Shown here: piece after piece, positions 6,868 to 64,000 of the stretch
Layout of the letters: each line of letters starts with the position of its first letter
How positions within the stretch are numbered: position 1 is the first letter of the stretch
Assembly: GCA_965203555.1 (NCBI GenBank)
Contig: CBDBCY010000004.1
Location: 2,026,007 to 2,090,006 of the forward strand
Direction: 5' to 3'
From: Acidimicrobiia bacterium
GTDB taxonomy: Bacteria; Actinomycetota; Acidimicrobiia; Spongiisociales; ZC4RG35
Length of the DNA stretch: 64,000 bases
Notes under the pieces: generated by a model
What the model saw: the letters and a program-made list of their open reading frames with translations, nothing else
What the model was told of the DNA's origin: nothing
The model's database searches: none
Made by a program: the position numbers and the translations under genes

Positions 6868-6951
6868 TCATCGCTTTGTCTCCAACCCCTAGAACTTGGC
6901 CGGGGGCCTGATCACTACTGCCCGTTGATCGCCTATGGTCGAGTCGGAGGC

Positions 6952-7653: not shown

Positions 7654-7803
7654 CTCTTCTCCTTGTCTCCTGTTTCTTCCGGCCGATGGTAGGGGAAGCA
7701 GAGCACAACATAATCGGGGGATGACCGCGCGGGCGGACTCGGGCAAGCGCCGTTCTCAACCCCTGCCTTTGCTTGAAGGCAGGCCAAAAAGAGTGGCAAA
7801 ATC

Positions 7804-7847
7804 TTTTGTAAAGGTGTTTGACAAATAGGTTGTAGTGCACTTACACT
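7804..7847 (+). promoter_or_regulatory. Candidate sigma70-type promoter (TTGACA 7818-7823, TACACT 7842-7847) overlapped by inverted repeat TTTGTAAA-N5-TTTGACAAA (7804-7825)
   Basis: An AT-rich patch in an otherwise 65% GC window, sitting 75 bp upstream of the ROK regulator and its operon. The near-palindrome (8 of 9 positions) overlaps the -35 box. Confidence 0.4.
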
Positions 7848-7922
7848 GCAATTTCAAACCCACACGGGAGCCTCCGACCTCCCTTGCCAACGGCCTTTAG
7901 GAGCGAAAGGTATGGAAAGCCA

Positions 7923-10384: not shown

Positions 10385-10392
10385 GAGGAACC

Positions 10393-12597: not shown

Positions 12598-12640
12598 CCT
12601 TCCATGAACAGCTGATCGCATAGGGAAACGGTCGCAAGAG

Positions 12641-27627: not shown

Positions 27628-27707
27628 CAGTGGACCCGGTTGTCAGCGAGATTTACCCTACCGGATGAGGACCGCAGAAGCCAGCCTCGCCCTAGCCTTC
27701 TGAGACA

Positions 27708-28487
27708 ATGACTGACGACCAACTCTCCTTGGGGGCGGGACTCTCGGGGCGCGGGGTGATAGTCACCGGCGCAGCCAGCGGGATCGGACGAGCGACTGCT
27801 CGTCTCGCCGCGGCTTGCGGGGCCCGGGTGTGTGGGGTGGACCTGAACGGTCCGGCCTTGCGGGCGGAGAAGGAGCAATGGGACGATCCCGGTCGTCATC
27901 TGGCAGTGGAGATCGACTTGACCGGCGACGATGCTCCTCACACGGTGGTTGAGACCGTGCTGGAGGAGTTCGGCGACCTGTGGGGACTGGTCCACTGCGC
28001 GGGAGTGCTGGTCCGCCGATCCAGCCCTGCCGAGGTGACCCGACAGGAATGGGATCTCCAGCACAGCGTGAACCTGAAAGCCTCCTTCTTCATCAACCAG
28101 GCAGTGGGCGAGGCGCTGAAAGCCCGCGGCGGGGGTGGGCGTATGATCACTCTCAGTTCGCAAGGGTGGTGGACGGGCGGAAGCCATGGTGCGGTGGTCT
28201 ATTCCGCTTCGAAGGGGGGCATCGTCTCCATGTGCCGCGGTCTGTCCACCTCTTACGCTCCCCACGGGATCATGGTGAACTCCATCGCGCCCGGGGTGGT
28301 GGACACCCCCATGCTGGGGATTGGACTAACTGAGGCCGATCTCGAGGCGATCGCCGCCTCCTGCCCCATGGGAAGATTGGCGAGGCCTGAGGAGATCGCC
28401 CAGGTTGCGGTGTTCCTGCTGTCCGCCCATGCCAGCTACATCTCGGCCGCCACCATCAATGTCAGCGGTGGTCTGCTCTTTTACTGA
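27708..28487 (+). CDS. Short-chain dehydrogenase/reductase (SDR)
   Basis: TGAASGIGRATA Rossmann motif and the YSASKGG catalytic motif; 259 aa. It is a paralog of the partial SDR at 63433. Confidence 0.85.
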   Translation: MTDDQLSLGAGLSGRGVIVTGAASGIGRATARLAAACGARVCGVDLNGPALRAEKEQWDDPGRHLAVEIDLTGDDAPHTVVETVLEEFGDLWGLVHCAGVLVRRSSPAEVTRQEWDLQHSVNLKASFFINQAVGEALKARGGGGRMITLSSQGWWTGGSHGAVVYSASKGGIVSMCRGLSTSYAPHGIMVNSIAPGVVDTPMLGIGLTEADLEAIAASCPMGRLARPEEIAQVAVFLLSAHASYISAATINVSGGLLFY

Positions 28488-47063: not shown

Positions 47064-49337
47064 TTACGGTTGGTTGGCGGCCCCAGGGGTGGGGTTGTCA
47101 ACGGTTTGAAAGTCGCCGGTGGCGTCGGGCAGGCGGGCGTAGCTGTGATCCGCGGGAGATTGGCCTTCGCTCCAGTCGACACTGGAGACGAGGGCGCCGT
47201 CCAGCAGCCAGATTCCCAGTTCCTCGTCTCCGCCCAAGGCGAAGCCGGGCCAGCCGTCCTTGTCCAACCTGAACTGCACGTACCCGCCCGGTTGGATGCT
47301 GGCGCCGACCGGGAAGGAGACCCGCTTGGCGGCGTCGGTGAGGCTGTCGGCCACCACAAAGCCGTCGAGCGACACCGGATGGGACAGCGGGTTGTGCAAC
47401 TCGAACCAGTCCAGGGGGTCACCCTTGGCAGCCACCTCGTTGATGACCAGGCCGACCTGCGGAGGAGGGTCGGGGTCCGGTGCCTGCGGGACGTCGCCAC
47501 CGGTCGACGGCGGACGCCCGAAAACGCCGGAGAAGGCGCCGGCCACCGTGGAGCCGGGCGTCGTCCCCGCCTTCGACAGTTCCAGTGTGCCCTCGGTGAA
47601 GGGCGAGAAGGCGTCCGGCGCCGCGGCTCCAGCCGGGATGGACCACGTCCCCCCGGCGATGGCGTCCTCGCCAATGAGCAGCCTGGCGCCCTCGGCCAAG
47701 CGATCGAGGTCCATGGTCAGCGTCATTCCGGTGAGGGAACCGTCGTCGTTGAACCTGATGACGGTGACGGACCCGGGCCTATCGACGTCCGGTAGCAGGC
47801 TGCTCTCCTCCGGGCTGGAGTGGCCGGCCAGAACTGCCATGCCCTCCCCCGAATCCTCGGAGCCGTTCAGCAGCAGGTTGCTGATCGTCCCCTCCCCCCA
47901 AGGCTCGGAACTCAGGTTGCTTCCCCAAGTCGTCTCGAAGACGATTTCCAGGGTGCCCGACCCGGCGTCCGGCGGGGCGGATGTCTCCGACTCGGGCCAC
48001 TCGGGCGGACTGGGTATGAGGTCCGCCAGTATCTCGCCTCTCCGCTTCAGGATGAACTTGCGCACCCGCTCCGTGTCGGCGGAGGCCTCCTCTCTGGCCT
48101 CCGGTAGAGCGTGCCGCTGCACGATGGCGGCCATTTGGTCCACAACGGCCAGCAGTTCCTCCTCGTTCCAGGCGATGCCCAGGATCTCCTCCAGGCGGGC
48201 GGTGTATTTGCCCCGCCAATCGGGATGGTTGTAAAGGCGGTTGGGGATGGCCGTGAGGGCCAGCACCGACGGGGGCGGGTCGCTGATGTTGTCGAAGGGA
48301 TTGGGGTCGTCCTTCAGGTGGAAGGTGTCGTCGACGCCCCACGGTATGAACACGAACGGCCCGTCTGGCTCACGGTAGAAGTGATAGTTGTTGCGGTTGC
48401 CGGCGTACCCGTCCCAGTGTCCCACCAGCACCTCCGTCGCCCAAAAGGAGAGGAACCGGTCCAGGTCCGCGATCTCGCCCAGCGCCTCCAGGCCGGCGTC
48501 GGACGGGTCCTGCAGGGCTGCCACCACCGCGTCTATGTCCGACCAGTCGGCAACGTCTTCGTTGGTCTTCTTCTCGATGGTGCCGCGAAACTCCGGCGTG
48601 AAGTCGCTTACCGTGCCTTCGTACAGGTTGCCCTCGGCGCTATCGAAGTGCCGGGACAGAAACGGCGCCTTGATTTCTTCGACATGGACGTACAGTCCCA
48701 GATCCTTCCCGTTCACCGACACGGTGGCGAAGTTGCAGCGCGGCGCGGGAATACCGGCGGCGGCGAACACCCGGTACGACAGGCAGGTGTTGACCATGGA
48801 GGGGTCCTGGATGCTGTTGTTCAGGGTCATCCGCTTCATGATCCCGCCGAGGGACCGGCCGTCCACGTACTTGTCGAACCGCAGCTTCAGGGACGGCTTG
48901 GTGTCGCTCTGGGAGCCGACGAACCCCTTCTTGCGAATCCCGATGTCGGTGTGGGTCTCGCCGTCCACGGTGACGGTGCCGGAAAACCAGGTGTAGATAT
49001 CGGCAAAGGGCCGGGAGAGGCCGAATTCCTCGATCTCCGCCATCACGTCCTCCAGCGTCCGGGTCTGGTGGCGCAGGGTGTCCCAGTCCTCGCCGGCGAT
49101 TTCGATGCTGATGTCCAGCACGCGGTCCAGGGCGAAGTAGGCATCGCCGGGGAAGGTGGTGGTGGCGCCAGAGGTGGTGGTGTCGGAGGTGTCCGCCACC
49201 GTTGAGGTGGTACCGGCAGGGGATACGTCGGCGTCGTCGGTCTCGTCCCCGCAGGCAACCGCAATCATCACGGCCGCCGCCAGCACCATGGTTAGTCGCC
49301 GGTACACAATCCTCAGGGTATCGGACCACGGTCCCAA
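47064..49337 (-). CDS. CotH-kinase-family protein with C-terminal lamin-tail domain; secreted lipoprotein
   Basis: Lipobox MVLAAAVMIAVAC, then a CotH-like core (SVNGKDLGLYVHVEEIKAPFLSRHF..GNLYEG; WDGYAGNRNNYHFY) and an LTD-like C-terminus (VINEV...DWFELHN...DGF). The start could be TTG 49337, GTG 49307 or ATG 49289. Confidence 0.7.
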   Translation of the reverse strand: MGPWSDTLRIVYRRLTMVLAAAVMIAVACGDETDDADVSPAGTTSTVADTSDTTTSGATTTFPGDAYFALDRVLDISIEIAGEDWDTLRHQTRTLEDVMAEIEEFGLSRPFADIYTWFSGTVTVDGETHTDIGIRKKGFVGSQSDTKPSLKLRFDKYVDGRSLGGIMKRMTLNNSIQDPSMVNTCLSYRVFAAAGIPAPRCNFATVSVNGKDLGLYVHVEEIKAPFLSRHFDSAEGNLYEGTVSDFTPEFRGTIEKKTNEDVADWSDIDAVVAALQDPSDAGLEALGEIADLDRFLSFWATEVLVGHWDGYAGNRNNYHFYREPDGPFVFIPWGVDDTFHLKDDPNPFDNISDPPPSVLALTAIPNRLYNHPDWRGKYTARLEEILGIAWNEEELLAVVDQMAAIVQRHALPEAREEASADTERVRKFILKRRGEILADLIPSPPEWPESETSAPPDAGSGTLEIVFETTWGSNLSSEPWGEGTISNLLLNGSEDSGEGMAVLAGHSSPEESSLLPDVDRPGSVTVIRFNDDGSLTGMTLTMDLDRLAEGARLLIGEDAIAGGTWSIPAGAAAPDAFSPFTEGTLELSKAGTTPGSTVAGAFSGVFGRPPSTGGDVPQAPDPDPPPQVGLVINEVAAKGDPLDWFELHNPLSHPVSLDGFVVADSLTDAAKRVSFPVGASIQPGGYVQFRLDKDGWPGFALGGDEELGIWLLDGALVSSVDWSEGQSPADHSYARLPDATGDFQTVDNPTPGAANQP

Positions 49338-49439: not shown

Positions 49440-50300
49440 TTACCCCGAGTCGGCCAGGGCCTGGCGGATCTGGTCGCGGACGTAGATCGTCTCGCACAGG
49501 TTGTCGACCCTGTCGCAGCCCCACTTCTGCATCCACACGTACTCGGCGGCTATGAAGCCCTCATAGCCCTGATCGACCAGCCGACGAACCAGACGTTGGA
49601 TGTCGATCGTTCCCTCATAGGAGATGGCCTGCATCACTTCCGGCGCCGCCTGGCGGACCTGGTGGTGCCTCGAGATCGGCAAGAGGGTCTCGATGCGCTC
49701 CTGGGAGATGCCCTGGTAGACGAAGTGGGCAAAGTCGAGGCAGACCTTCAGGCCTGGGACCTCTGCGACGAGTTGAGCCGTTACCTCGGGAGTCTCGGTG
49801 ATGGAGCCGATGTGCGGCTCGAAACCCAGTTCCAGCCCTGCGTCCTGTGCCACCTCCACCCGCCAGGCCAGCTCCTCCACCGCCAAGTCCCAGTCGCGGG
49901 CTGGATCGCGATCCTGGAATGGACAGCCCGGCAGGATGGTCAATCCCGGAGACTCCAGCACCAGGGTGAACTCGATGAAGCGGCGGAAGTCCTCTCGGGC
50001 CTTGTCGCGAACCTCGGCGGACGGATTGTTCGGCGCCGCCGACTGCACGTCGAACACTGGCCTGAAGTCGGTGATCACGATGGGAAAGACGTCCGCCACC
50101 GCCAACCCGTGATCGTCGGCCATCGCCTTTATCCGTCGGCCGACGCCGGTGGGATCGGCGATGACGTCCTCGGCGGAATTGTTGGGATTTCCCGAGAAGA
50201 CGGCAACGTCCACCGCGTCGAACTCCAGTCCCTTGATCAGGGCAAGGTTCACGTTGTACGGCAGGAGCGGGAAGGAATAGTCGGCGCAGGAAAGCCGCAT
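49440..50300 (-). CDS. Sugar phosphate isomerase/epimerase (xylose-isomerase-like TIM barrel)
   Basis: MRLSCADYSFPLL N-terminus after AAAGGAAC; Xyl-isomerase-like TIM family pattern. The track start at 50471 is an unlikely extension. Confidence 0.8.
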   Translation of the reverse strand: MRLSCADYSFPLLPYNVNLALIKGLEFDAVDVAVFSGNPNNSAEDVIADPTGVGRRIKAMADDHGLAVADVFPIVITDFRPVFDVQSAAPNNPSAEVRDKAREDFRRFIEFTLVLESPGLTILPGCPFQDRDPARDWDLAVEELAWRVEVAQDAGLELGFEPHIGSITETPEVTAQLVAEVPGLKVCLDFAHFVYQGISQERIETLLPISRHHQVRQAAPEVMQAISYEGTIDIQRLVRRLVDQGYEGFIAAEYVWMQKWGCDRVDNLCETIYVRDQIRQALADSG

Positions 50301-50356
50301 GGCAGTCGTTCCTTTCGTCATCGGGATGTAGCGTGCTATTAAAGTTAGGCCGACCG

Positions 50357-51775
50357 ATGAGTCGCCCCTCCCCAGACCGCCCACCTCGTATCGGCCAGTT
50401 GTCGGTTTACTTCGGACTCTTCGACGCGGCGATGCCCCCCGAGTTCCGCCGCGACCGGGAAGCACTGGCAAACCGCTTCACCGAGTTCCTTTCCGCCGGC
50501 GGGGACGTTGTCTTTCCCGGTCTGGTGGACTCCGAGGAAGCGGGACGCCGGGCGAATGACGTGTTTGCCGCCGAGCAGGTGGACGTGGTGGTGTTCGTTC
50601 CGGCCATGGCTGCCCCGCCCAGCTACGGCTGGGAGGCCATCTCCGGTCTGGGCATCCCGGTCATCTCGGTGGCGGCCCAGGAGCTCACCTCGATACCCGA
50701 TGTGTACACCACCGAGGAGGGGACGCAGCGGAGCACCCTGGTGGGCCTGGTGATGTTCACCAACGTCATGGCCCGGGAGGGAAAGCCCATGGTGACATTG
50801 GTGGGGCGGTTGGAGTCGGAGGAATTCGCCGCGGAGGTGGCGCAGACCGTACGGGCGGCCGCCCTGGCGAAACGCCTGCAAGGTGCGCGGGTGGGCGCCA
50901 TCGGGGCTCCGATCGGGGGGTATCTGGACGTGGAGGCCACCCCCGAGGAAGTCGACGGCTTGGGATTGGAGATGGTCTCGATATCGAGGGAGGAACTGAA
51001 CGCGGCTTTTGCCGGAGCATCCCAGGAGAGCGTTGGGGAACTCGTTGACGGTCTGCGGGACAGATTCGATACCGACCGGACTCCCGACGAGACCCTTCAG
51101 CGGTCCGCCCGGCTGGCCGTAGCCCTTCGGGACATCTGCGAACGAAACGACCTGGTGGGGGGGACGGTGAACTGCCACGGCGACATGTTCCGCTGGAACC
51201 CGGAGGTGGGGATCACGGCCTGTCTGGGGGTGACCTGTCTGACCGAGGCGGGAACGCCCCTTTCCTGCACCGGCGACCTTCCCGCCGGTATCGCCCTGGT
51301 GATCGGGAAGGCCGTGGCGGGAGGGTCCCTGTACTGCGAGGTCTACGGGGTCGACTTCGAAGGAGACTGGGTGCTGCTGGCCAACGGCGGCGAGAGCGAT
51401 GTCTCGATGGCCGATACATCCCGGCCGATCACCCTCCTGCCCGAGGACCACTACATGGGTGAGCAGGGTCCGGGCACCGCCATCGTGTTCTCCCTGCCCA
51501 CCGGGCCCGCCACCCTGCTGAGCATGTCTCCCATCGCGGGGGCCGAGGGAGGTTGGGCGTTGGTGGTGGGCGAGGGGGAGATCATCGGTTCGCGGCACGA
51601 GTCGATCGAGGGCCCCAACGGGATGTTCCGCTTCTCCTCGGGTCCTGCGTCCGAGGCCTTCCAGCGGTTCTGCAACGCCGGCGCCACTCATCACAGCGCC
51701 CTGACCCCCGGCCACCACCTCCGGACGCTTCGGATGATGGCGGAGTGGATAGGCTTCGAGGTCCGGGCGGTCTGA
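50357..51775 (+). CDS. L-arabinose/L-fucose isomerase family protein (AraA-like)
   Basis: N-terminal RIGQLSVYFGLFD, the approximately 475-aa length and the C-terminal beta-barrel domain typical of AraA/FucI-like isomerases. Divergent from the 50300 gene. Confidence 0.65.
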   Translation: MSRPSPDRPPRIGQLSVYFGLFDAAMPPEFRRDREALANRFTEFLSAGGDVVFPGLVDSEEAGRRANDVFAAEQVDVVVFVPAMAAPPSYGWEAISGLGIPVISVAAQELTSIPDVYTTEEGTQRSTLVGLVMFTNVMAREGKPMVTLVGRLESEEFAAEVAQTVRAAALAKRLQGARVGAIGAPIGGYLDVEATPEEVDGLGLEMVSISREELNAAFAGASQESVGELVDGLRDRFDTDRTPDETLQRSARLAVALRDICERNDLVGGTVNCHGDMFRWNPEVGITACLGVTCLTEAGTPLSCTGDLPAGIALVIGKAVAGGSLYCEVYGVDFEGDWVLLANGGESDVSMADTSRPITLLPEDHYMGEQGPGTAIVFSLPTGPATLLSMSPIAGAEGGWALVVGEGEIIGSRHESIEGPNGMFRFSSGPASEAFQRFCNAGATHHSALTPGHHLRTLRMMAEWIGFEVRAV

Positions 51776-51914
51776 TACCGGCCTCTGCCCGGGGACTCTC
51801 CCCGCCAATTAACTCTCTTCCCCACCGAAGCGCCGGAGGGTCTGTGCTCTACCATTACCTAATAGGGTTTTCTTGCAGAAGCAGGGGCTGAGAGGTCCCG
51901 GAACAGGAGAAGTG

Positions 51915-53039
51915 ATGCGCATATCCAAAGTAACTCCAATCTCGGTCGCCTATCCCGAGCCCAACGATTCGGGCGCCACCCGGCACCTCACCTTTTGCCG
52001 GATCGAGACCACCGATGGGACCGTGGGCTGGGGAGAGGCCATAACCATGTGGCCGGAGGCGTGCCGGGCCACCGAGCAGATCATCTCAGGGATGGGAGAT
52101 CTCATCGTGGGAAGAGACGTGGCCGACAACATCGCCATCTGGCGGGAGTTGCGCAAACACGCCTGGTGGTATGGATATCGCGGCGGGATTTCTCACTTCG
52201 CCCTCTCGGCGATCGACCTGGCCCTGTGGGACCTGAAGGGGAAGGACCTGGGACAGTCGGTTCTCAAGATGATGGGCGGGCCCGTCCGGGAGTCGCTGCC
52301 GGCCATTGCCAGCACGCACGCCTTCCTGACCATGGACGAGGAGATCGAAAAACACGGACGGTGGGTGCAGGAAGACGGTTACCGGGGGGTGAAGATCGGA
52401 TTGGGCAAGGCGGGGATAACCCGCCTGGGTTACGACGCCAACCGGGACATCGAATTCATGCGCCGTCTCCGGGAGGCGGTGGGCCCCGACGCCTGGATCA
52501 TGCTGGACCGCGGCGTCAATTGCACCTGGGACCTGGAACACGCCATCCGACTGATCAACGCATGGGAAGAGTACGGATTGCGGTGGATGGAGGAGCCCTT
52601 CGAGCCCCGCGAATACATCAACTACCAGAGACTCCGAGTCGCCGTGAACACCATGCTGGCCTGGGGAGAGCGGGAGTGGGACGAGGACGGCTACCGCGAG
52701 GTGATCGGCACCGGCAACGCCGACGTGTTGGGAGTCGACCCCGGTCGCGTCGGGGGGATCACCGGCGCCCTGCGGATCATTCGCCTGGTGGAAGACGCAG
52801 GAGTGTGGTTCAACGCCCATGCGTGGAGCGGCGCACCGGTGACCGCCGCCAGCCTGGCGCTGTCGTTCAGCACGAACCGATGCCTGCTGTTCGAGTTCAA
52901 GCCCATCGAGAACCCGATGCAGCATGAACTGGTCACCAACCCCTTCGTCCATGATCGGGGCACCGTCGGCATCCCGCCGGAGCGACCCGGTCTGGGCATC
53001 GACGTGCAGGAGAAAGTGATCCAAAAGTATCGGCTGTGA
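51915..53039 (+). CDS. Enolase-superfamily enzyme, mandelate racemase/muconate lactonising (sugar-acid dehydratase-like)
   Basis: MRISKVTPISVAYPE...GWGEA capping domain, KIGLGK and the metal-ligand D/E/D pattern (MLDRG..., WMEEP, EREWDEDG). AGGAGA then ATG 51915. Confidence 0.85.
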   Translation: MRISKVTPISVAYPEPNDSGATRHLTFCRIETTDGTVGWGEAITMWPEACRATEQIISGMGDLIVGRDVADNIAIWRELRKHAWWYGYRGGISHFALSAIDLALWDLKGKDLGQSVLKMMGGPVRESLPAIASTHAFLTMDEEIEKHGRWVQEDGYRGVKIGLGKAGITRLGYDANRDIEFMRRLREAVGPDAWIMLDRGVNCTWDLEHAIRLINAWEEYGLRWMEEPFEPREYINYQRLRVAVNTMLAWGEREWDEDGYREVIGTGNADVLGVDPGRVGGITGALRIIRLVEDAGVWFNAHAWSGAPVTAASLALSFSTNRCLLFEFKPIENPMQHELVTNPFVHDRGTVGIPPERPGLGIDVQEKVIQKYRL

Positions 53040-54819: not shown

Positions 54820-55677
54820 TCAGCGTTCCGTCTTGTACGGATTGAGGAGGTCGGTGAGGGTGTCGCCGAGGAGGGTGAAGACCAGCACCGTTATGAATAT
54901 GGCGCTTCCCGCTCCCAACGCCAGGTAGGGATTGGTGGAGACCAGGGTCTTGCCGGCCAGCAGCATGGCGCCCCAGGACGGGGCGGGAGGCTGAGCGCCC
55001 AGACCCAGGAAACTGAGGGCGGCTTCGGTTAGCACCGCGGTGGCGAAGGTGAGAGTGAACTGCACCAGGATGATCGAGGTCAGGTTGGGCAGGAGCGACC
55101 GCTGCATCAGATATACATGACTGGCGCCCAAGGCTCTGCCCGCGGTGATGAATTCGCTCTCTTTGAGGGAGAGGGCCATTCCTCGCACCAGACGGGCGAA
55201 GCGGGGGATCTGGACTATCCCGATGGCAATGATGGTATTGCGCAGATTGGTTCCCAGCACCGCCACCATGGCCATGGCCAGGATGATGGGGGGAAACGCC
55301 AGCAAGCCGTCGGTGGTGCGCATCATTATGGTGTCGGTGAGCTTCCCGAAGTACCCGCTGACCACGCCCATCGGCACCCCGAACACCACCGCGATGGCGG
55401 TGGAGGCAAAGCCCACGTACAGGGAGACTCGCGACCCGTGGATGAGACGACTGAAGATGTCCCTTCCTATCGAGTCGGTGCCAAGCCAGAACTGTGCGGT
55501 GGGCAACTCGAAGGGATAGGCGACCACTTCGGTGGCGCCGTAAGGCGCCAGGAGATCGGCGAACAGCGCGGTCAGCACCAGTAGCGCCACCATGCTGAGC
55601 GTGAAGAGGTGGAGGGGATTGCGGACGATCCTCCTCCAGATCTTGCGTCTCTCCGAGAACTGTGCGGCAGATGTCAT
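54820..55677 (-). CDS. Peptide/nickel ABC transporter permease (DppC/OppC-like)
   Basis: N-terminal RRIVRNPLHLF...; ABC-2 type permease with the conserved EAA loop. Confidence 0.85.
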   Translation of the reverse strand: MTSAAQFSERRKIWRRIVRNPLHLFTLSMVALLVLTALFADLLAPYGATEVVAYPFELPTAQFWLGTDSIGRDIFSRLIHGSRVSLYVGFASTAIAVVFGVPMGVVSGYFGKLTDTIMMRTTDGLLAFPPIILAMAMVAVLGTNLRNTIIAIGIVQIPRFARLVRGMALSLKESEFITAGRALGASHVYLMQRSLLPNLTSIILVQFTLTFATAVLTEAALSFLGLGAQPPAPSWGAMLLAGKTLVSTNPYLALGAGSAIFITVLVFTLLGDTLTDLLNPYKTER

Positions 55678-55699
55678 ATCCGGGTTGGTCCTTGTGCGC

Positions 55700-56647
55700 T
55701 CATGAACGGGCGATCCTCGGGTCGAGCCAGGAATAGGTCAGGTCCACCAGCAGGTTGACGATCACGAAGGTGGCGGCCGAGACCAGCACGGCTATCTGAA
55801 CCACGTCGAACGCCCGGGTGAGGATGGACTGGATCATAAGCCATCCCAACCCCGGCCAAATGAAGATCTGCTCGATAACCACCATCCCTCCCACCAGCAA
55901 TCCGAAGTTGACGCCCACCTCGGTGACCAGCGGGATGGCGGCGTTCCGGAAGGCATGCCAGTAGTTGACCCGACGCTCCGTCAGGCCCTTGGCGCGGGCG
56001 GTGCGCACGTAGTCGGCGCTGAGCACTTCCAACATCCCTGCTCTCATGAACCGGGTCAGCCGGGCGGCGGTCACCGACGCGATGGTGAGCACCGGCATTA
56101 TCAGTTGACTGAGGTGCTTGACGGGATCTTCTCCAAAGGGAACGTACCCCCCGGGAGGTAGAAGGGGGAACACTTCCGCCAGCAGGATGAGCAAGCCGAT
56201 TCCCATCACATAGGTGGGCATGCTGAACCCCAGGGTGGTGAACACCCGGGCGATGTGGTCCACCCATGTCCCTTCCCGGATGGCCGAGATCATCCCCAGG
56301 GGCACGGCCACAATCACGGCCAGGAGTATGGAGAGAGCAGCCAGTTCCAAGGTTCTCCCCAAGGCGGGAAAGACCAGGCTGGACACCTCGGCGTAGCCGT
56401 GAGTAATCGACTTCCCGAAGTCGCCGCGGGCCAGGTTCCCCATCCAGCGCAGGTATTGGACGTGGGTGGGGTCGTTGAGGCCCAACTCCTCTCGGAGTGC
56501 TTCGTAGTCCTCCGGTGAGGCGTCGAGGCCGAGTGTCATGGCGGCGGGGTCGCCTGGGACCAGCCGGAAGATCACGAACACGGCGGTCGAGACGATCCAC
56601 ATGACCAGGATCCCGTGCAACAGGCGGCGGGCAACGTATCTGGTCAT
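55700..56647 (-). CDS. Peptide/nickel ABC transporter permease (DppB/OppB-like)
   Basis: MTRYVARRLLHGILVMWIVSTAVF...; 315 aa. The track ORF extends to 57487 through the ATPase gene in another frame and is rejected. Confidence 0.85.
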   Translation of the reverse strand: MTRYVARRLLHGILVMWIVSTAVFVIFRLVPGDPAAMTLGLDASPEDYEALREELGLNDPTHVQYLRWMGNLARGDFGKSITHGYAEVSSLVFPALGRTLELAALSILLAVIVAVPLGMISAIREGTWVDHIARVFTTLGFSMPTYVMGIGLLILLAEVFPLLPPGGYVPFGEDPVKHLSQLIMPVLTIASVTAARLTRFMRAGMLEVLSADYVRTARAKGLTERRVNYWHAFRNAAIPLVTEVGVNFGLLVGGMVVIEQIFIWPGLGWLMIQSILTRAFDVVQIAVLVSAATFVIVNLLVDLTYSWLDPRIARS

Positions 56648-57654
56648 GATCGAGCGCTCCAGTGGCTTTCGGCGCCCGGGTAATGGCAGGCCACCAAGCT
56701 GTCGGAGACAGGCGCCAATGGGGGGTCCTGTTCGACGCAGAGTTGGTCGCCTCGCCAGCACCGGGTTCTGAACCGGCAGCCGGAGGGCGGATCGAGGGGA
56801 TTGGGCAGGTCGCCGGTGAGAATTATCCGTTCCCGGGTCTGTCGACCCTGGGCGGCGGAGATGTCGGGGATCGCCGACAGGAGGGCGATCGTGTAGGGAT
56901 GCTGGGGGGAGTTGAAAACCGCGTCCCGGGGGCCTTCTTCCACGATCCGGCCGAGGTACATGACCGCCACGCGATCGGAGACCTGGCCCACCACCGACAG
57001 ATCGTGGGCGATGAACAGATACGCCAGGCCGAGTTCGGTTTGCAGGTCTTCCAGCAAGTTGAGAATCTGGGCCTGGATGGAGACGTCCAGCGCCGACACC
57101 GGTTCGTCCAGCACCAGAAGAGAGGGCTCCAGGGCCAGGGCTCGGGCGATGGCGATCCGCTGTCGCTGACCGCCGGAGAACTCGTGGGGGAACCGGCGCA
57201 GGGAGTCGGGTGGCAACTGGACCAGGGACAGCAGTTCCGGGATCTTTTTGCTGGCCACCTTTTTGGAGATGCCATGGATCCGGAAAGGCTCGTACAGGAT
57301 CTGGCGGACTCTGAACCGGGGATTGAGGGAGGCGTAGGGATCCTGGAAGACGATCTGCATCTCCTGGCGCAGGGGACGCATCTGTTGGTGATCGAAGTGG
57401 GTGATGTCCTCTCCCGCGAAACTCACAGTTCCGGCAGAGGGTTCCAGCAGTCGGATGATGGTCCTTCCCAGGGTGGACTTGCCGCACCCCGACTCACCCA
57501 CCAGCCCCAGAGTTTCACCAGGCTTGATGGACAGGGTGACGTCCTCCACCGCCACCAGGGTGGTGGCCTTCTGGGCGCCGCTGCGTCGGATGTGGTAACT
57601 GGTGGTGATGTCCCGGATGTCGAGAATCGGCTTCCGGGCGGCGGCGGTGTTCAT
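56644..57654 (-). CDS. Peptide ABC transporter ATP-binding protein (DppF/OppF-like)
   Basis: Walker A GESGCGKST, signature FSGGQRQR and the C-terminal oligopeptide-ABC extension with Cys residues; ATGA overlaps. Confidence 0.85.
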   Translation of the reverse strand: MNTAAARKPILDIRDITTSYHIRRSGAQKATTLVAVEDVTLSIKPGETLGLVGESGCGKSTLGRTIIRLLEPSAGTVSFAGEDITHFDHQQMRPLRQEMQIVFQDPYASLNPRFRVRQILYEPFRIHGISKKVASKKIPELLSLVQLPPDSLRRFPHEFSGGQRQRIAIARALALEPSLLVLDEPVSALDVSIQAQILNLLEDLQTELGLAYLFIAHDLSVVGQVSDRVAVMYLGRIVEEGPRDAVFNSPQHPYTIALLSAIPDISAAQGRQTRERIILTGDLPNPLDPPSGCRFRTRCWRGDQLCVEQDPPLAPVSDSLVACHYPGAESHWSARS

Positions 57655-58661
57655 GTTGCTCTCCCGGTGAGCCAGGATGCCGCCTCCTCGGTGAAGTGAC
57701 AGGCTGCCTGGTGTCGGGTTCCCACTTCCAGCAGCCGCGGGGAGTCGGATCGGCAGACCGAACGCTCCCCTCCGACGGCGCACCGGGGATGGAAGGGGCA
57801 TCCCGGGGGGACGTTGGCCATATCGGGAGGCTGGCCGGGAATGGAGTAGAGTTTCGTCCTCTTTTGCGTGATCGAAGGAATGGAAGCCAGCAGTCCGATC
57901 GTGTAGGGGTGCCGTGGCCGGGAGAAGATGTCGCCGATGCGCCCTTCCTCCACGATCCGACCGGCGTACATCACTATCACCCGGTCGGCAATCTGGGAGA
58001 CCAGCCCCAGGTCGTGGGTGATCAGGATGGAAGCCGCCCCCGTCTCCTGGCGGGCTGCCTTGAGGGTTTCGATCACCTGCGCCTGGATGGTCACGTCCAG
58101 GGCGGTGGTGGGCTCGTCGGCGATCAGCAGCTTGGGCCGGTTGGCCATGGCCATGGCGATCATGGCCCGCTGGCGCATACCGCCCGAGTACTCGTGGGGA
58201 AACTGGTTGTAGCGCCGTTCCGGCTGCGGGATCCCCACCATGTCCAGCAATTCGATGCCGCGCCGGCGGTGATTGGACCTGGAATCGGAAGGATTGTGGG
58301 TCCACAGAGCTTCCCGCAGTTGCTCCCCCACCTTGATAACCGGGTTCAAAGAGGTCATGGGATCCTGGAACACCATGGAGATCTCCTGTCCCCGGATCGC
58401 GCGGAGGGCTTCCGTGGACAGGGGCAACAAGTCCTGCCCCTCGAAGAGAGCCCTTCCACCGGTTATCTCCCCGGGGGGTTTGGGGATGAGTCCCAGGATG
58501 CTCAGCACCGTCACCGTCTTGCCGGATCCGGACTCGCCGACTATTCCGAGGGTCTCCCCGGTGTTGAGGGAGAAACTCACGCCATTGACGGCATTGATCA
58601 ACTGATCATGGGTGTTGAACCGGACTGAAAGGTTCTCGACGGTTAGCAACGGAACTGGCAT
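57651..58661 (-). CDS. Peptide ABC transporter ATP-binding protein (DppD/OppD-like)
   Basis: LLTVENLSVRF..., Walker A GESGSGKT, signature YSGGMRQR. Confidence 0.85.
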   Translation of the reverse strand: MPVPLLTVENLSVRFNTHDQLINAVNGVSFSLNTGETLGIVGESGSGKTVTVLSILGLIPKPPGEITGGRALFEGQDLLPLSTEALRAIRGQEISMVFQDPMTSLNPVIKVGEQLREALWTHNPSDSRSNHRRRGIELLDMVGIPQPERRYNQFPHEYSGGMRQRAMIAMAMANRPKLLIADEPTTALDVTIQAQVIETLKAARQETGAASILITHDLGLVSQIADRVIVMYAGRIVEEGRIGDIFSRPRHPYTIGLLASIPSITQKRTKLYSIPGQPPDMANVPPGCPFHPRCAVGGERSVCRSDSPRLLEVGTRHQAACHFTEEAASWLTGRAT

Positions 58662-58762
58662 CGGGATTGAAAGATACCTTGCTGGGCGAGGTTTGGGCGG
58701 TAGGAGAGGAGGGGCGGGGACGCCGAAGCGCCCCCGTTCTCCTCAGTTTGCGTTAGCGGAAC

Positions 58763-60649
58763 CTAGTTCTCTGACAGGTAGACGTCGGTGAGGTACAGGG
58801 TTCCTTGAGTGTGCGAAATGAAGCCGTGGACATTGGGACTGTGGGGTATGGGGTTCAGTCGCCCTCCGAGGACGATCTGGGGTTGTTCCTCCATGGCCCA
58901 CTCCTGCAACTGGTATATGGCTTCCTTGTACTCGATGTTGGAGGCGATGGATCGGGCACTGGCCAGCAACTCGAAGAACTCGGGCTTGTGGTCGATCCAT
59001 CCCATGGTCTCAACGAAGAGCTTGTTGTAGGGATGGTTCAGCAAGTCGTACTCGTCCGGCTTGGGCACCATTGCGCACTGGGCCAGGTCGTACAGGCCAA
59101 GCTGGTCAGGATCATTCGTATGCGTGGGGAGCGTTCTGTCAACATAGGTCGCCACATCCATGATGTTCAGCTCGATCTGGATGTTCAAGCCGGTTTTCAG
59201 TTGCTCCTGAACGGCCTCGGCCAGCCAGGTGTGCTCGATGTTAGTAGCGCAAACTATCATCTCCCCGCCGTCGAAGCCGTCGGCATACCCCGCACTCGCG
59301 AGAAGGGCCTTCGCTCCCTCGACGTCAGGAGCGTTGTATGAGGCCGCGTCCGGGTTGAAGAACTGCGCGTTGCTCTCCATGGGGTTGGAAATAACCTGCA
59401 TGTGGCCCAGCAGGGTTCGTTGCAGCGCAGGGCGATCAATCGCCATGCTGACCGCCTGGCGCACCAGGGGATTCGACCAGATGTCCCTGCGGGTGTTGAC
59501 GTGGAAGTGATACAGGCCGGTGTTCCCCGATGGAGGACTGGCGATTACCATGCCCGCTTCGCTGAGGGCTGCCAACTCGGGCAACGGACCCTGGGCCAGC
59601 ATGTGGACCTCGCCGGATCGAAGCTGAAGCGACTGGACGTTCTCATCAGGAACGGTGACGTACTCGATCCTGTCCAGGTAAGCCTCGCCCCAGTAGTCGG
59701 GGTTGCGCTCTATGACAACCTTTTGGTTTTTCTCCCAGGACACGAACCTGTACGGACCGGTGCCGGTAGGCGTCGCGTTCAAGTCGATGTCCTCGGCAGG
59801 CGATATATACACGTCGATCAGCGTGCTGTGCAATATGCGATCCGGCTCTGAGAGTCGAACCTCCACGGTGAGGTCGCCAGTCGCTACGACTTCCGCGACT
59901 CGAGTCAGCAAGGAAGCTGTCCTTCCCGCCCCGGGCTCCTGCGCGCGTTCGATTGAGCGAACAACGTCAACGGCGTCCAGATCCGAGCCGTCGTGAAAGA
60001 CCACGTCCGGACGAATATGGAATTCATGCGTCAGACCGTCTTCTGAGACATTCCAGTGAGTGGCCAGCAAAGGCCTGATCTCGTAGGTGTTCAGGTCGAA
60101 CTCAACCAGGGTTTCATACATGTTGGTGACGACGTTGCGGCCAGCTGTGGATCCGTACCGGTTGGGATGCATTTGGTTTGGATCGGCCGTTTGGGCGATG
60201 ACGAGAGTCCCACCACGGGGAATCATCTCCTCTTCCATCGCCATGGTGGCTTCTTCCAACTCCTGTTCGGCCATGGCGGCTGCCTCTTCGGCTTCGGCTA
60301 CCATCGCTTCGGCTTCGGCTGCCTTAGCTTCGGCTTCGGCTGCCTTAGCTTCGGCTTCGGCCAATGCTTCCATGGCTGCTTCGTCCCCTTCTTCGGCGGC
60401 CATCTTCGTGTCTTCCAGTTCCGCCATGGCCTCATCCAGGGCAGCTTGCGCCTCGGCAGCTTCCGCGGCCGCGGCCGCGGCTTCGGCCGAGGCGGTTTCG
60501 GCTGCCGCCTGTGCCTCGGCTGCCTGTGCTTCGGCTGCGGCGCGGGCTGCTGCTTCGGCTTCGGCTGCGGCCTCGGCTTCCGAAGTGTCCTCCCCACAGG
60601 CCGTTGCAACCAGGGCCAGAATGGCCAGCATCGCGAGTAGTTTCTTCAT
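58763..60649 (-). CDS. ABC transporter substrate-binding lipoprotein, family 5 (peptide/nickel, DppA-like), with an approximately 130-aa Ala/Glu-rich linker
   Basis: ATG 60649 (MKKLLAMLAILALVATAC) after AAAGGAG. It then has about 130 aa of AEAEAAAKAAEAEA-type low complexity before a typical family-5 binding-protein body. Confidence 0.85.
   Translation of the reverse strand: MKKLLAMLAILALVATACGEDTSEAEAAAEAEAAARAAAEAQAAEAQAAAETASAEAAAAAAEAAEAQAALDEAMAELEDTKMAAEEGDEAAMEALAEAEAKAAEAEAKAAEAEAMVAEAEEAAAMAEQELEEATMAMEEEMIPRGGTLVIAQTADPNQMHPNRYGSTAGRNVVTNMYETLVEFDLNTYEIRPLLATHWNVSEDGLTHEFHIRPDVVFHDGSDLDAVDVVRSIERAQEPGAGRTASLLTRVAEVVATGDLTVEVRLSEPDRILHSTLIDVYISPAEDIDLNATPTGTGPYRFVSWEKNQKVVIERNPDYWGEAYLDRIEYVTVPDENVQSLQLRSGEVHMLAQGPLPELAALSEAGMVIASPPSGNTGLYHFHVNTRRDIWSNPLVRQAVSMAIDRPALQRTLLGHMQVISNPMESNAQFFNPDAASYNAPDVEGAKALLASAGYADGFDGGEMIVCATNIEHTWLAEAVQEQLKTGLNIQIELNIMDVATYVDRTLPTHTNDPDQLGLYDLAQCAMVPKPDEYDLLNHPYNKLFVETMGWIDHKPEFFELLASARSIASNIEYKEAIYQLQEWAMEEQPQIVLGGRLNPIPHSPNVHGFISHTQGTLYLTDVYLSEN
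60288..60363. repeat. 21-bp tandem repeat (CTTCGGCTTCGGCTGCCTTAG x2 plus partial units) within the Ala/Glu-rich linker coding region
   Basis: Read directly from the sequence; on the coding strand it encodes (A-E-A-E-A-K-A)n. Confidence 0.85.
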
Positions 60650-60805
60650 CTTGATCGCTCCTTTGTTGTCGGACATGTCCATCAGTATCGCGACTGTAAT
60701 AGCTAGACTAGAACTCTTCAATAGTCACAACCATCTGAAAAGTAAAAGAATTCTTTGCAAAACCGTTAATAGCCCTGCCCCTTTGCCAGGTAAGACCTAT
60801 AGAAG

Positions 60806-61171
60806 ATGTTTAAGATGGGTAACGGCAAGCCTATGTCTGACTTTCTGAAGCGCCCCCGACTTCCCGCTGGCATTGACGGGTCTCGGCTTGATCTGTGGGA
60901 GGAGTTCCGGCGACGGCCCTTCGGCCAGCATTCACCTGATCTGCAGGCGCTGTTGGACTACATGCGGGGTGGTCCGATCACTGGCAAGTTTTTCCTGAAG
61001 CTGACCGGCCCTCATTCGGAGTGGACCCTGGCGCGGTTCAGCACCACCTACCCATTGACCACCGAAACTCTGCCCGAGCATGTCTTCACCACCATCGAAG
61101 ACGCCGAGTATTTTGTGTTCCGCCGCCGCTGGGAGGAGATGTTCGGCGCCGACCCGGGAGCGGAGTCGTGA
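60806..61171 (+). CDS. Small protein (121 aa), candidate small subunit of the downstream DMFase-like amidase
   Basis: GC3-rich coding bias from about 60833 onward, and the stop overlaps the downstream GTG start (GTGA), which indicates translational coupling. No homology is recognisable by eye. The start could be ATG 60806, 60815 or 60833. Confidence 0.45.
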   Translation: MFKMGNGKPMSDFLKRPRLPAGIDGSRLDLWEEFRRRPFGQHSPDLQALLDYMRGGPITGKFFLKLTGPHSEWTLARFSTTYPLTTETLPEHVFTTIEDAEYFVFRRRWEEMFGADPGAES

Positions 61172-63396
61172 GCGTCAAGGCCGCGGTCATGGGATATGCG
61201 GACCGCCAGAGCCTGCGGCCGGGAGAGCGCATCGAGTTCAAGGTGAGCGCGTTGGGCCCGGAGACCTACCGGGCGGACATCGTGCGGTTGATCGCTCCGG
61301 AAGTGGGTCTGGGCGACGACTGCCCGGACTTCTGCGAGATTGAACTCCACACCGAGGTTTGCGGTGACTATCCCACGGAGTGGCAGCCCATGCATCCCGG
61401 TTCGGCGGTGCGGGTCCCGGGGGGTCTTCCCCTGGATGAGGGAGTGACCCTCAGCGCCAACATCTTTCCCACCTTGATCGAGGCGGGTCGGCAGGCCATC
61501 CTGGGAACCTACAGTCCCACCGACGATTCGGGCCTCAGCCTGATCCTGGAGGACGGGGCTCTCGCTCTGGTGGTGGGAAGCGGGGGGTCCACGGCCATCG
61601 TGACCAGTTCGATTACCCCGGTGGAGCACCGTTGGACGGCGGTGGCCGTCACCTATGAGCCTGACGCCGGCACGGTGGAATTCCATGCCCGGGGAATGGA
61701 GACCCATCGCCTCGAATCTTCACTGTCATCCCGGGAGAGGATGGAAGGGGCGGCGCCCGGAGCATCGGGAGGAAGCCACTTCCACATAGGGGCCGCCCGA
61801 GCCGTGGATGACCGCGGCGTGGAGCACACCGCGCTCTGTTTCAACGGCCGGGTCGAAAGGCCCCGGGTCTACGCCCGGTTGCTGGACCATGAAGACATCT
61901 CCCGTCTGTCGGCGGTGACCGGTCCGGCGCCGGTTGCAGGAGCGTATGCAGACTGGGACCTCTCCATCGGTATCGACACCGATTCGGTCACCGACGTGTC
62001 GGGCAACGGCCGTCACGGAGAGACGGTAAACCTGCCCACCCGCGCGGTGGGAGGCTCCAACTGGGCGGGTGAGACCGACAACTGGCAACTACGGACCGAG
62101 CAGTACGGCGCCATCCACTTCCACGACGACGACGTCGATGACGCCCGGTGGCGGACCAGTTTCGCCCTGGTGGTACCCGAGGACTGGAAGAGCGGATGCT
62201 ATGCGGCCCGCCTTCGGGCCGACGACGCCGAGTTCTACGTGCCCTTCGTGGTGCGGCCGACTCCCGGCAAGGAGGCCGATGCGGTGTTGCTGCTGTCCAC
62301 CGCCACCTACGGCGCCTACGCCAACCTGAGGCTTCGGGTCGTCTTCCCATGGAACGAGTTGATCCACGGTCGCCTGACGGTGCTGGACGACACCGATCTG
62401 CTGATGCTCCGGTTTCCCGAGATCGGCTCCTCCACCTACGACAGCCACACCGACGGGAGCACCGTTGTCTATGCCTCGATGCGGCGCCCGGTCACCAATT
62501 TCCGCCCCAAGGGCCGCATCTACAAGTTCTGCCAGGACATGCTGCTGGTCTCCTGGCTCGAGGAGGACGGATACGACTTCGACGTGATCACCGACGAGGA
62601 CGTGCACCGCGAGGGCCTGTCTGCCCTGGAGCCCTATCGGGTGGTCATCACCAGTTCCCATCCCGAGTACTTCAGCACCCGGATGTTCGACGCCACCGAG
62701 GACCATGTCAGGCAGGGAGGACGGATGATGTACCTGGGAGGCAACGGCTGGTACTGGGTGATCGGTTATCACCCCACCCGCTCGGGAATAGTGGAGGTCC
62801 GCCGGCCCGACGCTCCCCGGCTGTGGGCGGCCGACGTCAGCCAGGGTCATCTCTCGTTCACCGGAGAGCGAGCCGGTACGTGGTCATGGGCGGGCCGTCC
62901 CCCCGAGACCTTCCTGGGAGTGTGTTTCATCACCCAGGGCTTCGACGAGTGTTCCTATTACCGACGCACCGAGGCCTCCGACGATGAGCGCGCTGCCTTC
63001 ATTTTCGAGGGCGTCGACGACGAGCTCATCGGAGACTTCGGCCTGTTGATGGGAGGAGCGGCAGGATATGAGATCGACCGGGCGGACTACCTTATGGGGA
63101 CCCCGCGGCATGCGCTGGTTTTGGCGTCGTCGGAGGGCCATTCCAACCTCTACGACTTGATGGTCACCTCACTGGTCGATACTTTGCCGCCCACCAATCC
63201 CGATGATCCCGACCGGATCCGTGCCGACATAGTGTTCTACGAGACCCCCGGTGGCGGTGCGGTGTTCTCGGTGGGCTCGATTGCCTGGTCGGGAAGCCTC
63301 AGCGCCGCACGGTACGACAACAACGTGGCGGCGGTCAGCCGTAACGTCCTCAACCGCTTCCTGGATCCCGAGCCCTTCCAGATGCCCGCCGAATGA
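61168..63396 (+). CDS. N,N-dimethylformamidase large (beta) subunit family protein
   Basis: Approximately 743 aa in a multi-domain beta-rich arrangement (RIEFKVSALGPETYRADIVRLIAPEV...), whose length and domain order fit the DmfA2-like family. The start is GTG 61168 (coupled) or ATG 61189. Confidence 0.6.
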   Translation: MSVKAAVMGYADRQSLRPGERIEFKVSALGPETYRADIVRLIAPEVGLGDDCPDFCEIELHTEVCGDYPTEWQPMHPGSAVRVPGGLPLDEGVTLSANIFPTLIEAGRQAILGTYSPTDDSGLSLILEDGALALVVGSGGSTAIVTSSITPVEHRWTAVAVTYEPDAGTVEFHARGMETHRLESSLSSRERMEGAAPGASGGSHFHIGAARAVDDRGVEHTALCFNGRVERPRVYARLLDHEDISRLSAVTGPAPVAGAYADWDLSIGIDTDSVTDVSGNGRHGETVNLPTRAVGGSNWAGETDNWQLRTEQYGAIHFHDDDVDDARWRTSFALVVPEDWKSGCYAARLRADDAEFYVPFVVRPTPGKEADAVLLLSTATYGAYANLRLRVVFPWNELIHGRLTVLDDTDLLMLRFPEIGSSTYDSHTDGSTVVYASMRRPVTNFRPKGRIYKFCQDMLLVSWLEEDGYDFDVITDEDVHREGLSALEPYRVVITSSHPEYFSTRMFDATEDHVRQGGRMMYLGGNGWYWVIGYHPTRSGIVEVRRPDAPRLWAADVSQGHLSFTGERAGTWSWAGRPPETFLGVCFITQGFDECSYYRRTEASDDERAAFIFEGVDDELIGDFGLLMGGAAGYEIDRADYLMGTPRHALVLASSEGHSNLYDLMVTSLVDTLPPTNPDDPDRIRADIVFYETPGGGAVFSVGSIAWSGSLSAARYDNNVAAVSRNVLNRFLDPEPFQMPAE

Positions 63397-63432: not shown

Positions 63433-64000
63433 GGGGACAGGCATGACCGCACCGGACTGGTCGCTGGGCGCCGGTCTCCGGAACCAGGCGGTGCTGGTGA
63501 CCGGAGCGGCGAGCGGCATCGGAAAGGCGACCGCCCGGACCATGGCGGCCCTGGGCGCCAGGGTGGCGGCATTGGACGTTCAGGAGACGGTGCGGGAAGT
63601 GGTGGGGGACTTGGAGGACCCCGGCCGGCACCTGCCGGTGGTCTACGATCTGGCTGACAGCGGGTCGATGCCGTCGTTGGTGGCCGACATCGAGGCGCGG
63701 CTGGGCCCGCTGTGGGCGCTGGCTCATGTGGCGGCCTACCTGCGGCGCAAGGAGTTGGGCGATGTGACCGAAGAGGACTGGGACGCTCAGCTGGATGTGA
63801 ACCTGAAGGGTTCATTCTTTCTCAACAAGGCGGTTGGAGAGGCGATGATCGCCACCGGCAGAGGGGGGCGCATCATCAACTTCACGTCCGGAGCTTGGCT
63901 GAGCGGACCGGTGCATGGCAGCCACATCTACGTGGCCAGCAAGGGGGGTGTGGTCTCCATGACCCGGGGGTTTGCCCGGGCCTACGGGCCACATGACATT
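63433..64000 (+). CDS. Short-chain dehydrogenase/reductase (SDR), 3'-partial at the window edge
   Basis: VLVTGAASGIGKATA and YVASKGG motifs. It is a paralog of the 27708 SDR (the shared N-terminus is SLGAGL...TGAASGIG.ATAR). It is absent from the ORF track because it has no in-window stop. Confidence 0.8.

Follow-up and report, generated by a model that had tools for sequence, protein, structure and literature searches.

A predicted alpha/beta amidohydrolase of the N,N-dimethylformamidase family and its gene neighbourhood in an Acidimicrobiia bacterium

The DNA analysed here (the window) is a 64,000-nt stretch of contig CBDBCY010000004.1 (positions 2,026,007 to 2,090,006) of an Acidimicrobiia bacterium, assembly GCA_965203555.1. 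Close to its end lie two overlapping genes for a small (alpha) and a large (beta) protein, followed by a gene for a short-chain dehydrogenase/reductase (SDR). According to our analysis, the two proteins are likely to form an alpha/beta mononuclear-iron amidohydrolase of the N,N-dimethylformamidase (DMFase) family, which is encoded in an operon with the SDR and probably acts on an imported natural N-acyl substrate. Judged by sequence and predicted fold, the pair is an ordinary member of a known family, with all the features of the DMFase alpha/beta type found at the family level. It is not new in kind, because Pfam models both subunits and homologs are labelled as DMFase-family by the Joint Genome Institute (JGI) and NCBI. 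The term “DMFase-like” is not to be read as “degrades N,N-dimethylformamide (DMF)”.

Reading frames and coupling of the gene pair

The genes at the end of the window are arranged as follows.

60833..61171, plus strand: alpha (small) subunit gene, 112 aa; the longest open reading frame (ORF), from 60806, has 121 aa
61156..61171, plus strand: translational-coupling junction with GGGAG at 61156-61160, a 7-nt spacer and GTGA, read from the sequence
61168..63396, plus strand: beta (large, catalytic) subunit gene, 742 aa, GTG start, matching PF20254 and 6lvb_A
63443..64000, plus strand: SDR-family oxidoreductase gene, 185 aa visible, adh_short at 5e-36

The overlap of the two reading frames, described in a first-pass annotation of this DNA, was confirmed from the ORFs and the sequence: the alpha TGA (61169-61171) overlaps the beta GTG (61168-61170), and a Shine-Dalgarno-like GGGAG lies 7 nt 5' of that GTG. 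The junction is kept in related loci (GTGA in L011, ATGA in L002), and the alpha and beta genes are predicted to be translationally coupled via the GTGA overlap. The frames given earlier hold as well, but both sizes were revised. The large protein has 742 aa and not 743, which is the number of codons counting the stop. For the small gene, the real start is most likely the ATG at 60833, giving 112 aa instead of 121 aa, as suggested by the comparison of relatives: this is the conserved alpha start, close homologs all open with MSDFLKRPRLP, an in-frame stop lies 2-3 codons 5' of that Met in L002 and L011, and the ATG at 60806 is not conserved. A 26-nt stretch with the alpha start (GATGGGTAACCGGATACCATGTCTGA) is tandemly duplicated in the 86% relatives (L002, 7960-8010); the window is without this duplication.

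The SDR gene starts with an ATG at 63443, after a gap of 46 nt from the beta stop at 63396. A terminator scan revealed no terminator-like site in this gap, and the sole site that it returned (63797-63815) falls within the SDR gene and is no more than chance would give. The alpha and beta genes are probably co-transcribed with the downstream SDR.

The small protein as a DMFase alpha subunit

Profile and fold comparisons alike support the prediction that the small protein is a true DMFase alpha subunit. When the small ORF was compared with the PDB sequences by phmmer, the small-subunit chain of the Paracoccus DMFase (6LVB_B) was the top match (E 0.0015), and a profile built from 69 alpha homologs found the same chain at 9.5e-11, with the next match at 0.18. 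An alpha ortholog with 92% identity (P0001) carries a precomputed match to PF26354 (DMF_alpha). The small ORF itself was not matched in the Pfam and NCBIfam scans; this null result is no evidence against homology, because PF26354 is newer than the Pfam release scanned. The AlphaFold model (mean pLDDT confidence score 89.5) has three helices and three strands, with residues 1-18 as coil, and in a Foldseek search its best match was again 6LVB_B, with a probability of 1.00, a template modelling (TM) score of 0.66 and a root-mean-square deviation of 2.0 A over 89 columns. Matches were limited to DMFase small-subunit chains, while unrelated structures (rank 4 onward) had TM scores below 0.3. The DmfA1-type identity of the small subunit, for which a search with family models had been proposed earlier, is thus borne out by the ortholog's PF26354 match, the profile and the predicted fold.

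In comparison with two orthologs, the alpha gene showed 31-34 synonymous and 9 non-synonymous codon changes, with 34-35 differences at third positions and 6-7 at each other position. By this pattern, the small ORF is clearly coding and under purifying selection.

An N-terminal “wedge” helix has been described in the small subunit of the Paracoccus enzyme (Arya et al., PMC7686228). The aligned region of the window protein begins at approximately residue 37-41 of that subunit, and we infer from the alignment and the model that the N-terminal stretch of ~30 residues forming this inter-subunit helix seems to be missing in the window alpha and its family. Its apparent loss suggests that the quaternary packing of alpha and beta may differ.

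The large protein and its active site

The large protein is assigned by its sequence matches to the DMFase large-subunit family (PF20254; KEGG K03418), in agreement with the first-pass annotation. The scan against Pfam gave PF20254 (DMFA2_C) at 2e-92 (310.9 bits, cut-off 27) and a weak LamG match. Among PDB sequences, 6LVB_A was matched over its full length at 4.2e-136 (query residues 5-737 on chain residues 4-759), and this alignment spans the three domains, Ig-like, pentraxin/LamG and catalytic. The N-acetyl-(R)-beta-phenylalanine acylase (8HUY_A) was also matched over the full length, at 7e-119; the bit scores were 458 for the Paracoccus DMFase (ParDMFase) and 401 for the acylase. In BLASTP, beta was 35.9% identical to ParDMFase and 35.2% to the acylase, and ParDMFase and the acylase were 33.8% identical to each other; because of these values, the three proteins represent roughly equidistant lineages of one family. 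A search of the 64-kb window for a second DMFA2 paralog found none.

The Fe(III) of the Paracoccus DMFase has Y399, Y440 and E521 as its ligands, and mutagenesis and structures showed that H519, N547 and E657 are essential (Arya et al., PMC7686228). We aligned the window protein with 121 homologs and the two PDB references by MAFFT (n = 124). The three iron-ligand positions were invariant in all 124 sequences (Y384, Y424 and E500 in the window), which answers positively the question of whether the two tyrosines and the glutamate are conserved. The positions of H519 and N547 were likewise invariant in 124/124 (window H498 and N526), and E657 was kept in 122 sequences, including the window protein (E635). 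The catalytic machinery of beta is predicted to be intact, because the iron ligands and the essential residues are all conserved in the window protein.

The pocket of the Paracoccus enzyme is constricted by F693 from the neighbouring subunit (PMC7686228). At this position a phenylalanine occurs in ParDMFase only; in the window protein it is occupied by L673 in the MAFFT alignment or by D671 in that of phmmer, and L or V is found in most of the family. This gate, which is tied to small-formamide specificity, therefore appears not to be conserved; our confidence in this statement is moderate because of the loop alignment.

Co-conservation of alpha and beta

For the analysis of co-conservation, 80 loci were taken from contigs representing one genome per species, and their six-frame ORFs were searched with a hidden Markov model of alpha; 77 loci were assessable. 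In 53 of the 77 loci, alpha lay immediately 5' of beta on the same strand (48) or was joined to it in one chain (5); the other 24 had no detectable alpha. The gap between separate alpha genes and beta was mostly from -12 to +55 nt. Where beta was at least 45% identical to that of the window, alpha was present in 12/12 assessable loci. Together with the excess of synonymous changes, these counts uphold the earlier suggestion that the small ORF is coding and co-conserved with its neighbour.

An exhaustive profile search for the alpha family returned 372 cluster representatives at E<=1e-3 and 132 at 1e-10. The proteins are mostly of 100-130 aa, and several are joined to a beta domain; many beta homologs of ~865 aa have the architecture PF26354+PF13385+PF20254. 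In an earlier KOfam survey, 4.5% of complete genomes had the large subunit, whereas the small one turned up in only 41 genomes and metagenome-assembled genomes (MAGs). Our profile matches indicate that alpha, adjacent or fused, is much commoner than that survey showed.

Single-chain alpha-beta fusions of ~845-911 aa (PF26354+PF20254) occur frequently and in several phyla; examples are the proteins P0168, P0171, P0176-P0190 and P0013 and the loci L006, L007, L010, L012, L016, L024 and L026. Fused and split versions alternate among proteins of similar identity, which implies repeated fusion or fission events.

Gene neighbourhood and related loci

The genes and regions of the window that enter the comparison with related loci are listed below.

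60650..60832, no strand: divergent intergenic region of 183 bp, relatively AT-rich, between the transporter and alpha/beta operons
54820..60649, minus strand: Dpp/Opp-type ATP-binding cassette (ABC) importer, divergent from alpha/beta (Pfam), comprising the next three lines
58763-60649, minus strand: SBP_bac_5 lipoprotein, ATG at 60649 with AAGGAG ahead
57651-58661 and 56644-57699, minus strand: two oligo_HPY ATPases (Pfam)
55674-56600 and 54820-55677, minus strand: permease genes
49440-50471, minus strand: AP_endonuc_2 / xylose-isomerase-like TIM barrel (Pfam, NCBIfam)
50333-51775, plus strand: arabinose/sulfoquinovose-isomerase-like protein (Pfam, NCBIfam)
51873-53039, plus strand: MR_MLE enolase-superfamily protein, acid-sugar-dehydratase-like (Pfam, NCBIfam)
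26328-~27707, minus strand: Amidohydro_1 protein, COG1228-type (Pfam)
27708-28487, plus strand: paralogous SDR, 49% identical over 186 aa to the SDR after beta
28712-30061, plus strand: ceramidase-like protein, a tentative label from a sub-threshold Pfam match

The intergenic region between the two divergent operons (60650..60832) is partly conserved with L011 and L002; a promoter scan and an inverted-repeat search of it revealed no sigma-70 consensus and no inverted repeat. Within the importer, the permease at 55674-56600 had no Pfam match and was assigned from its position and its orthologs. The SBP_bac_5 lipoprotein has the lipobox LVATAC, followed by an Ala/Glu-rich low-complexity linker of ~115-130 aa before the binding domain, and the linker region (window 60240-60590) also yields long spurious plus-strand ORFs (60056-60640 and 60087-60848). 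In L002 and L003, three SBP_bac_5-matching fragments (190, 80 and 42 aa) separate the transporter from alpha (~6900-7870); they are apparently remnants of a second binding-protein gene, and none occurs in the window. An importer of the same Dpp type stands beside alpha/beta in L002, L006, L007, L010, L011, L012, L026 and L092. Counting of these transporters by BLAST in the 80 loci missed cases shown by Pfam, and the association is used qualitatively only.

The closest relatives of the window pair are from Acidimicrobiia MAGs, with 93% identity in L011 (isolate SB0665_bin_24). In the loci L001-L003, the operon consists of alpha, beta, SDR, a PTE gene whose product matches E. coli PHP (1bf6), and an Ord-like gene whose product matches the native amine dehydrogenases 6g1h and 6iau. 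An SDR ortholog (42-93% identity) was found on the same strand near beta, mostly immediately downstream, in 10/10 non-redundant loci with beta at least 50% identical. In a clade with 58-61% identity (L005, L006, L007, L012, L026), alpha and beta, often fused, occur with PTE, SDR and Amidohydro_1 genes; the Amidohydro_1 gene comes right after the SDR, and its product is 37-46% identical to that of the window gene at 26328-27707. The latter protein matches prolidase, Cc2672 and ochratoxinase-type amide hydrolases. In the same clade, genes for a cupin (~135 aa) and a PhyH dioxygenase (~320 aa) lie on the minus strand 3-6 kb downstream of beta; this pair is absent from the window lineage. The idea that the cupin and PhyH proteins are EctC and EctD, and that the amidase is an N-acetyl-diaminobutyrate deacetylase of ectoine metabolism, was not supported: NCBIfam gave no EctC or EctD match.

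The first-pass annotation had described the SDR after beta as a paralog of an SDR next to an amidohydrolase at 27.7 kb, and proposed a recurring hydrolase and dehydrogenase module. The paralogy is real, and the SDR at 27708..28487 is the only other SDR match of the window at E<1e-3. It does adjoin the amidohydrolase gene, but the two are divergently transcribed, with Amidohydro_1 on the minus strand. The link to the 27.7-kb site also proved to be real, but the 26-30 kb and 60-64 kb sites are predicted to be parts of one conserved gene set and not two independent modules, because L011 and L010 hold the orthologs of the 27.7-30 kb genes together with alpha/beta. In L011, alpha, beta and SDR are followed in turn by the amine dehydrogenase, the ortholog of the 27.7-kb SDR (86%) and the ortholog of the ceramidase-like protein (89%); the orthologs of the accessory genes at 49440..53039 are syntenic in this locus and 84-93% identical. 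In the Dactylosporangium locus L010, one strand carries SDR, ceramidase-like, PTE, AP_endonuc_2, GFO_IDH_MocA, Ord-like, MR_MLE and SDR genes, the alpha-beta fusion and a Dpp-type ABC transporter. At a greater distance, alpha and beta are accompanied by different genes (an acyl-CoA-synthetase-like one in L091, those of a Dpp ABC transporter in L092), which suggests diversification of the substrate across the family.

None of the MR_MLE, PTE, SDR, binding-protein and amidohydrolase products reached an equivalog cut-off in NCBIfam, and the ceramidase-like protein had no match among PDB sequences or in NCBIfam. By Pfam, several of the larger ORFs of the window code for ABC importers, and others for peptidases and sugar-type enzymes. 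No genes for methylamine, dimethylamine or formate oxidation were found among ~40 larger ORFs of the window (Pfam) or in the orthologous loci.

Some further genes of the window stand apart from this set. A 757-aa CotH kinase and lamin-tail protein is encoded beside the conserved cluster (47064-49337, minus strand) and was not seen in related loci. A 500-aa protein with Schlafen/AlbA_2, HATPase_c_4 and winged-helix regions (45344-46846, minus strand) is of a kind that annotations commonly call a putative DNA-binding or ATP-dependent regulator. The window also encodes two periplasmic binding proteins of unusual length, 747 and 677 aa (10354-12597, plus strand; 24147-26180, minus strand); each contains two Peripla_BP stretches and resembles a binding protein with tandem domains from an ABC system of the sugar or branched-chain type. 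A gene for a YhfX-like pyridoxal phosphate-dependent protein (13638-14846, plus strand; Ala_racemase_N and YhfX-like_C) adjoins a sugar-type ABC system (10354-13654) and a gene of the glucosamine-6-P-isomerase/6-phosphogluconolactonase family (15669-16406). E. coli PHP (YhfV) is encoded in the same yhf cluster as YhfX, and a functional link between the YhfX-like gene and the PHP-like PTE of the orthologous operons is possible.

Proposed function and alternatives

By analogy with the Paracoccus DMFase, Fe(III) in beta would be held by the tyrosinates Y384 and Y424 and the bidentate glutamate E500, with E635 as the general base, N526 stabilising the oxyanion and H498 essential. The 112-aa alpha would pack on the catalytic domain, stabilise beta and help to shape the substrate entrance; in Paracoccus, the large subunit has no activity on its own (PMC7686228). 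The substrate is probably a natural N-acylated amine that is larger than DMF, of a peptide-like or amino-sugar-like kind, and is taken up through the Dpp-type ABC importer. After deacylation, the amine could be oxidatively deaminated by the native-amine-dehydrogenase-like enzyme of the orthologous loci, and the carbon skeleton could be processed by the SDRs, the PHP/PTE-type hydrolase, the isomerase-like enzymes and the MR_MLE dehydratase. The COG1228 amidohydrolase and the ceramidase-like protein encoded at 26-30 kb might act on further amide bonds.

A broader proposal, which we put forward tentatively and with somewhat less than even confidence, is that the amidase is the entry step of a catabolic pathway for a natural N-acylated amine, kept from Acidimicrobiia MAGs to Dactylosporangium. 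Its parts would be the Dpp importer, the deacylase, the amine dehydrogenase, two SDRs and the PHP/PTE-type hydrolase, together with the ceramidase-like protein, the COG1228 amidohydrolase, the enolase-superfamily dehydratase and the sugar-isomerase-like enzymes. The target could be, for example, an amino sugar with an N-acyl group or a metabolite of a glyco/peptide-like kind.

Other explanations of the pair have to be weighed. If the small ORF had arisen by chance or were a degenerate remnant, with the large protein working alone, the missing matches of the small ORF in the Pfam and NCBIfam scans, the 24 of 77 related loci with no detectable alpha and the acylase PDB chain, which aligns from residue 9 and shows no fused alpha, would all be expected. 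This explanation is barely credible and is effectively refuted by the alpha results: PF26354 on the ortholog, the profile and fold matches to 6LVB_B, purifying selection, the conserved 4-nt overlap, alpha-beta fusions in many lineages and 372 representatives of the family. We also regard as unlikely an enzyme of the N-acetyl-(R)-beta-phenylalanine-acylase type, which would remove the acetyl group of an N-acetyl (beta-)amino acid, with the small ORF as an accessory only. The window clade always has alpha, whereas the acylase chain has no fused one; the identity is only 35%, in spite of the full-length match to 8huy_A and the retention of all catalytic residues; and much of the neighbourhood is sugar-type (isomerase-like, MR_MLE and, in L010, GFO_IDH_MocA) and not amino-acid-type, although the peptide-type importer and the COG1228 prolidase/carboxypeptidase-like amidohydrolase of the conserved set would suit such a role.

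A genuine N,N-dimethylformamidase or N-alkylformamidase, releasing formate and (di)methylamine from small formamides for the scavenging of carbon or nitrogen, seems to us quite improbable. The two-subunit architecture, the catalytic set identical to that of ParDMFase, the somewhat higher bit score for ParDMFase (458 vs 401), the name “N,N-dimethylformamidase” given to homologs by JGI and NCBI, and the detection of DmfA-annotated proteins in ocean metaproteomes all agree with this function. They are opposed by the 36% identity to ParDMFase, which is about the distance to the acylase, by the non-conserved F693 gate, and by the neighbours (importer, SDRs, PTE-type protein, amine dehydrogenase and sugar-acid-dehydratase-like protein), none of which belongs to C1-amine (one-carbon amine) oxidation. 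DMF is a synthetic solvent, first made in 1893, and is not known to occur in nature; the closest relatives of the pair are from Acidimicrobiia MAGs. The acetamiprid amidase AceAB of Pigmentiphaga sp. D-2 is likewise a DMFase-family enzyme of alpha and beta subunits and, according to a review, has no activity on DMF (PMC11573777). The window enzyme is probably not a strict EC 3.5.1.56 enzyme, as it shows neither the F693 gate nor an orthology-level identity nor a C1 context. Most likely, the physiological substrate is predicted not to be DMF, because of the equal distance to the acylase, the missing F693 gate, the AceAB precedent and the lack of C1-amine genes.

Several points weigh against the reading that we prefer, a DMFase-family amidohydrolase for an imported natural N-acyl substrate. 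The alignment of the F693 loop is uncertain, with D671 aligned by phmmer and L673 by MAFFT, and conservation of the catalytic residues does not separate substrates, as the acylase has the same residues. ParDMFase also hydrolyses N-methyl- and N-ethylformamide, and the window enzyme may be active on small natural formamides. The gene set is kept only where beta is at least ~50% identical and is variable inside that clade: the PTE gene is found in L001-L003 and not in L011, and among the related loci the Amidohydro_1, PhyH and cupin genes occur in the 58-61% clade only. The accessory enzymes are below all equivalog cut-offs, so the chemistry of the pathway is itself a prediction. Finally, the SDR gene runs past the end of the window.

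Significance

DMFase is notable for breaking a very stable amide bond at an unusual iron site of two tyrosines and one glutamate. Our literature search yielded no publication on what DMFase homologs do in nature, and the conserved neighbourhood of one clade offers a testable lead to the natural substrate of this widespread family. It also calls for caution against annotating such genes as those of DMF degraders in metagenomes. The reading as a catabolic pathway would, if true, show which role the family, known chiefly for degrading a solvent, had in nature before the industrial era.

Comparison with known systems

A close characterised counterpart is the DMFase of Paracoccus sp. DMF (DmfA1/DmfA2; 6LVB, EC 3.5.1.56), in which small and large subunits are encoded by adjacent genes, as in the window. 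The same 2-Tyr-1-Glu ligands, the counterparts of H519, N547 and E657, and the alpha fold (TM 0.66) are shared by both. The differences are in the small subunit, which has 132 aa in Paracoccus and 112 aa in the window with an identity of about 27%; in beta, which is 36% identical and lacks the F693 gate residue; and in the gene context, which in the window is a Dpp-type importer with sugar- and amine-processing enzymes and not C1-amine metabolism.

The AceAB amidase resembles the window pair in having two subunits and, according to a review (PMC11573777), splits a C-N bond of a compound far bigger than DMF. Its substrate is a synthetic insecticide and its host a betaproteobacterium; it sets a precedent for divergence of the substrate within the alpha/beta architecture. 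The N-acetyl-(R)-beta-phenylalanine acylase (8HUY, 8I59, 8I5A) is a full-length homolog of beta with 35% identity and the same catalytic residues. Its PDB chain aligns from residue 9 and has no fused alpha domain, whereas alpha is always present in the window clade. The acylase shows that the fold accommodates N-acetyl amides of larger amines.

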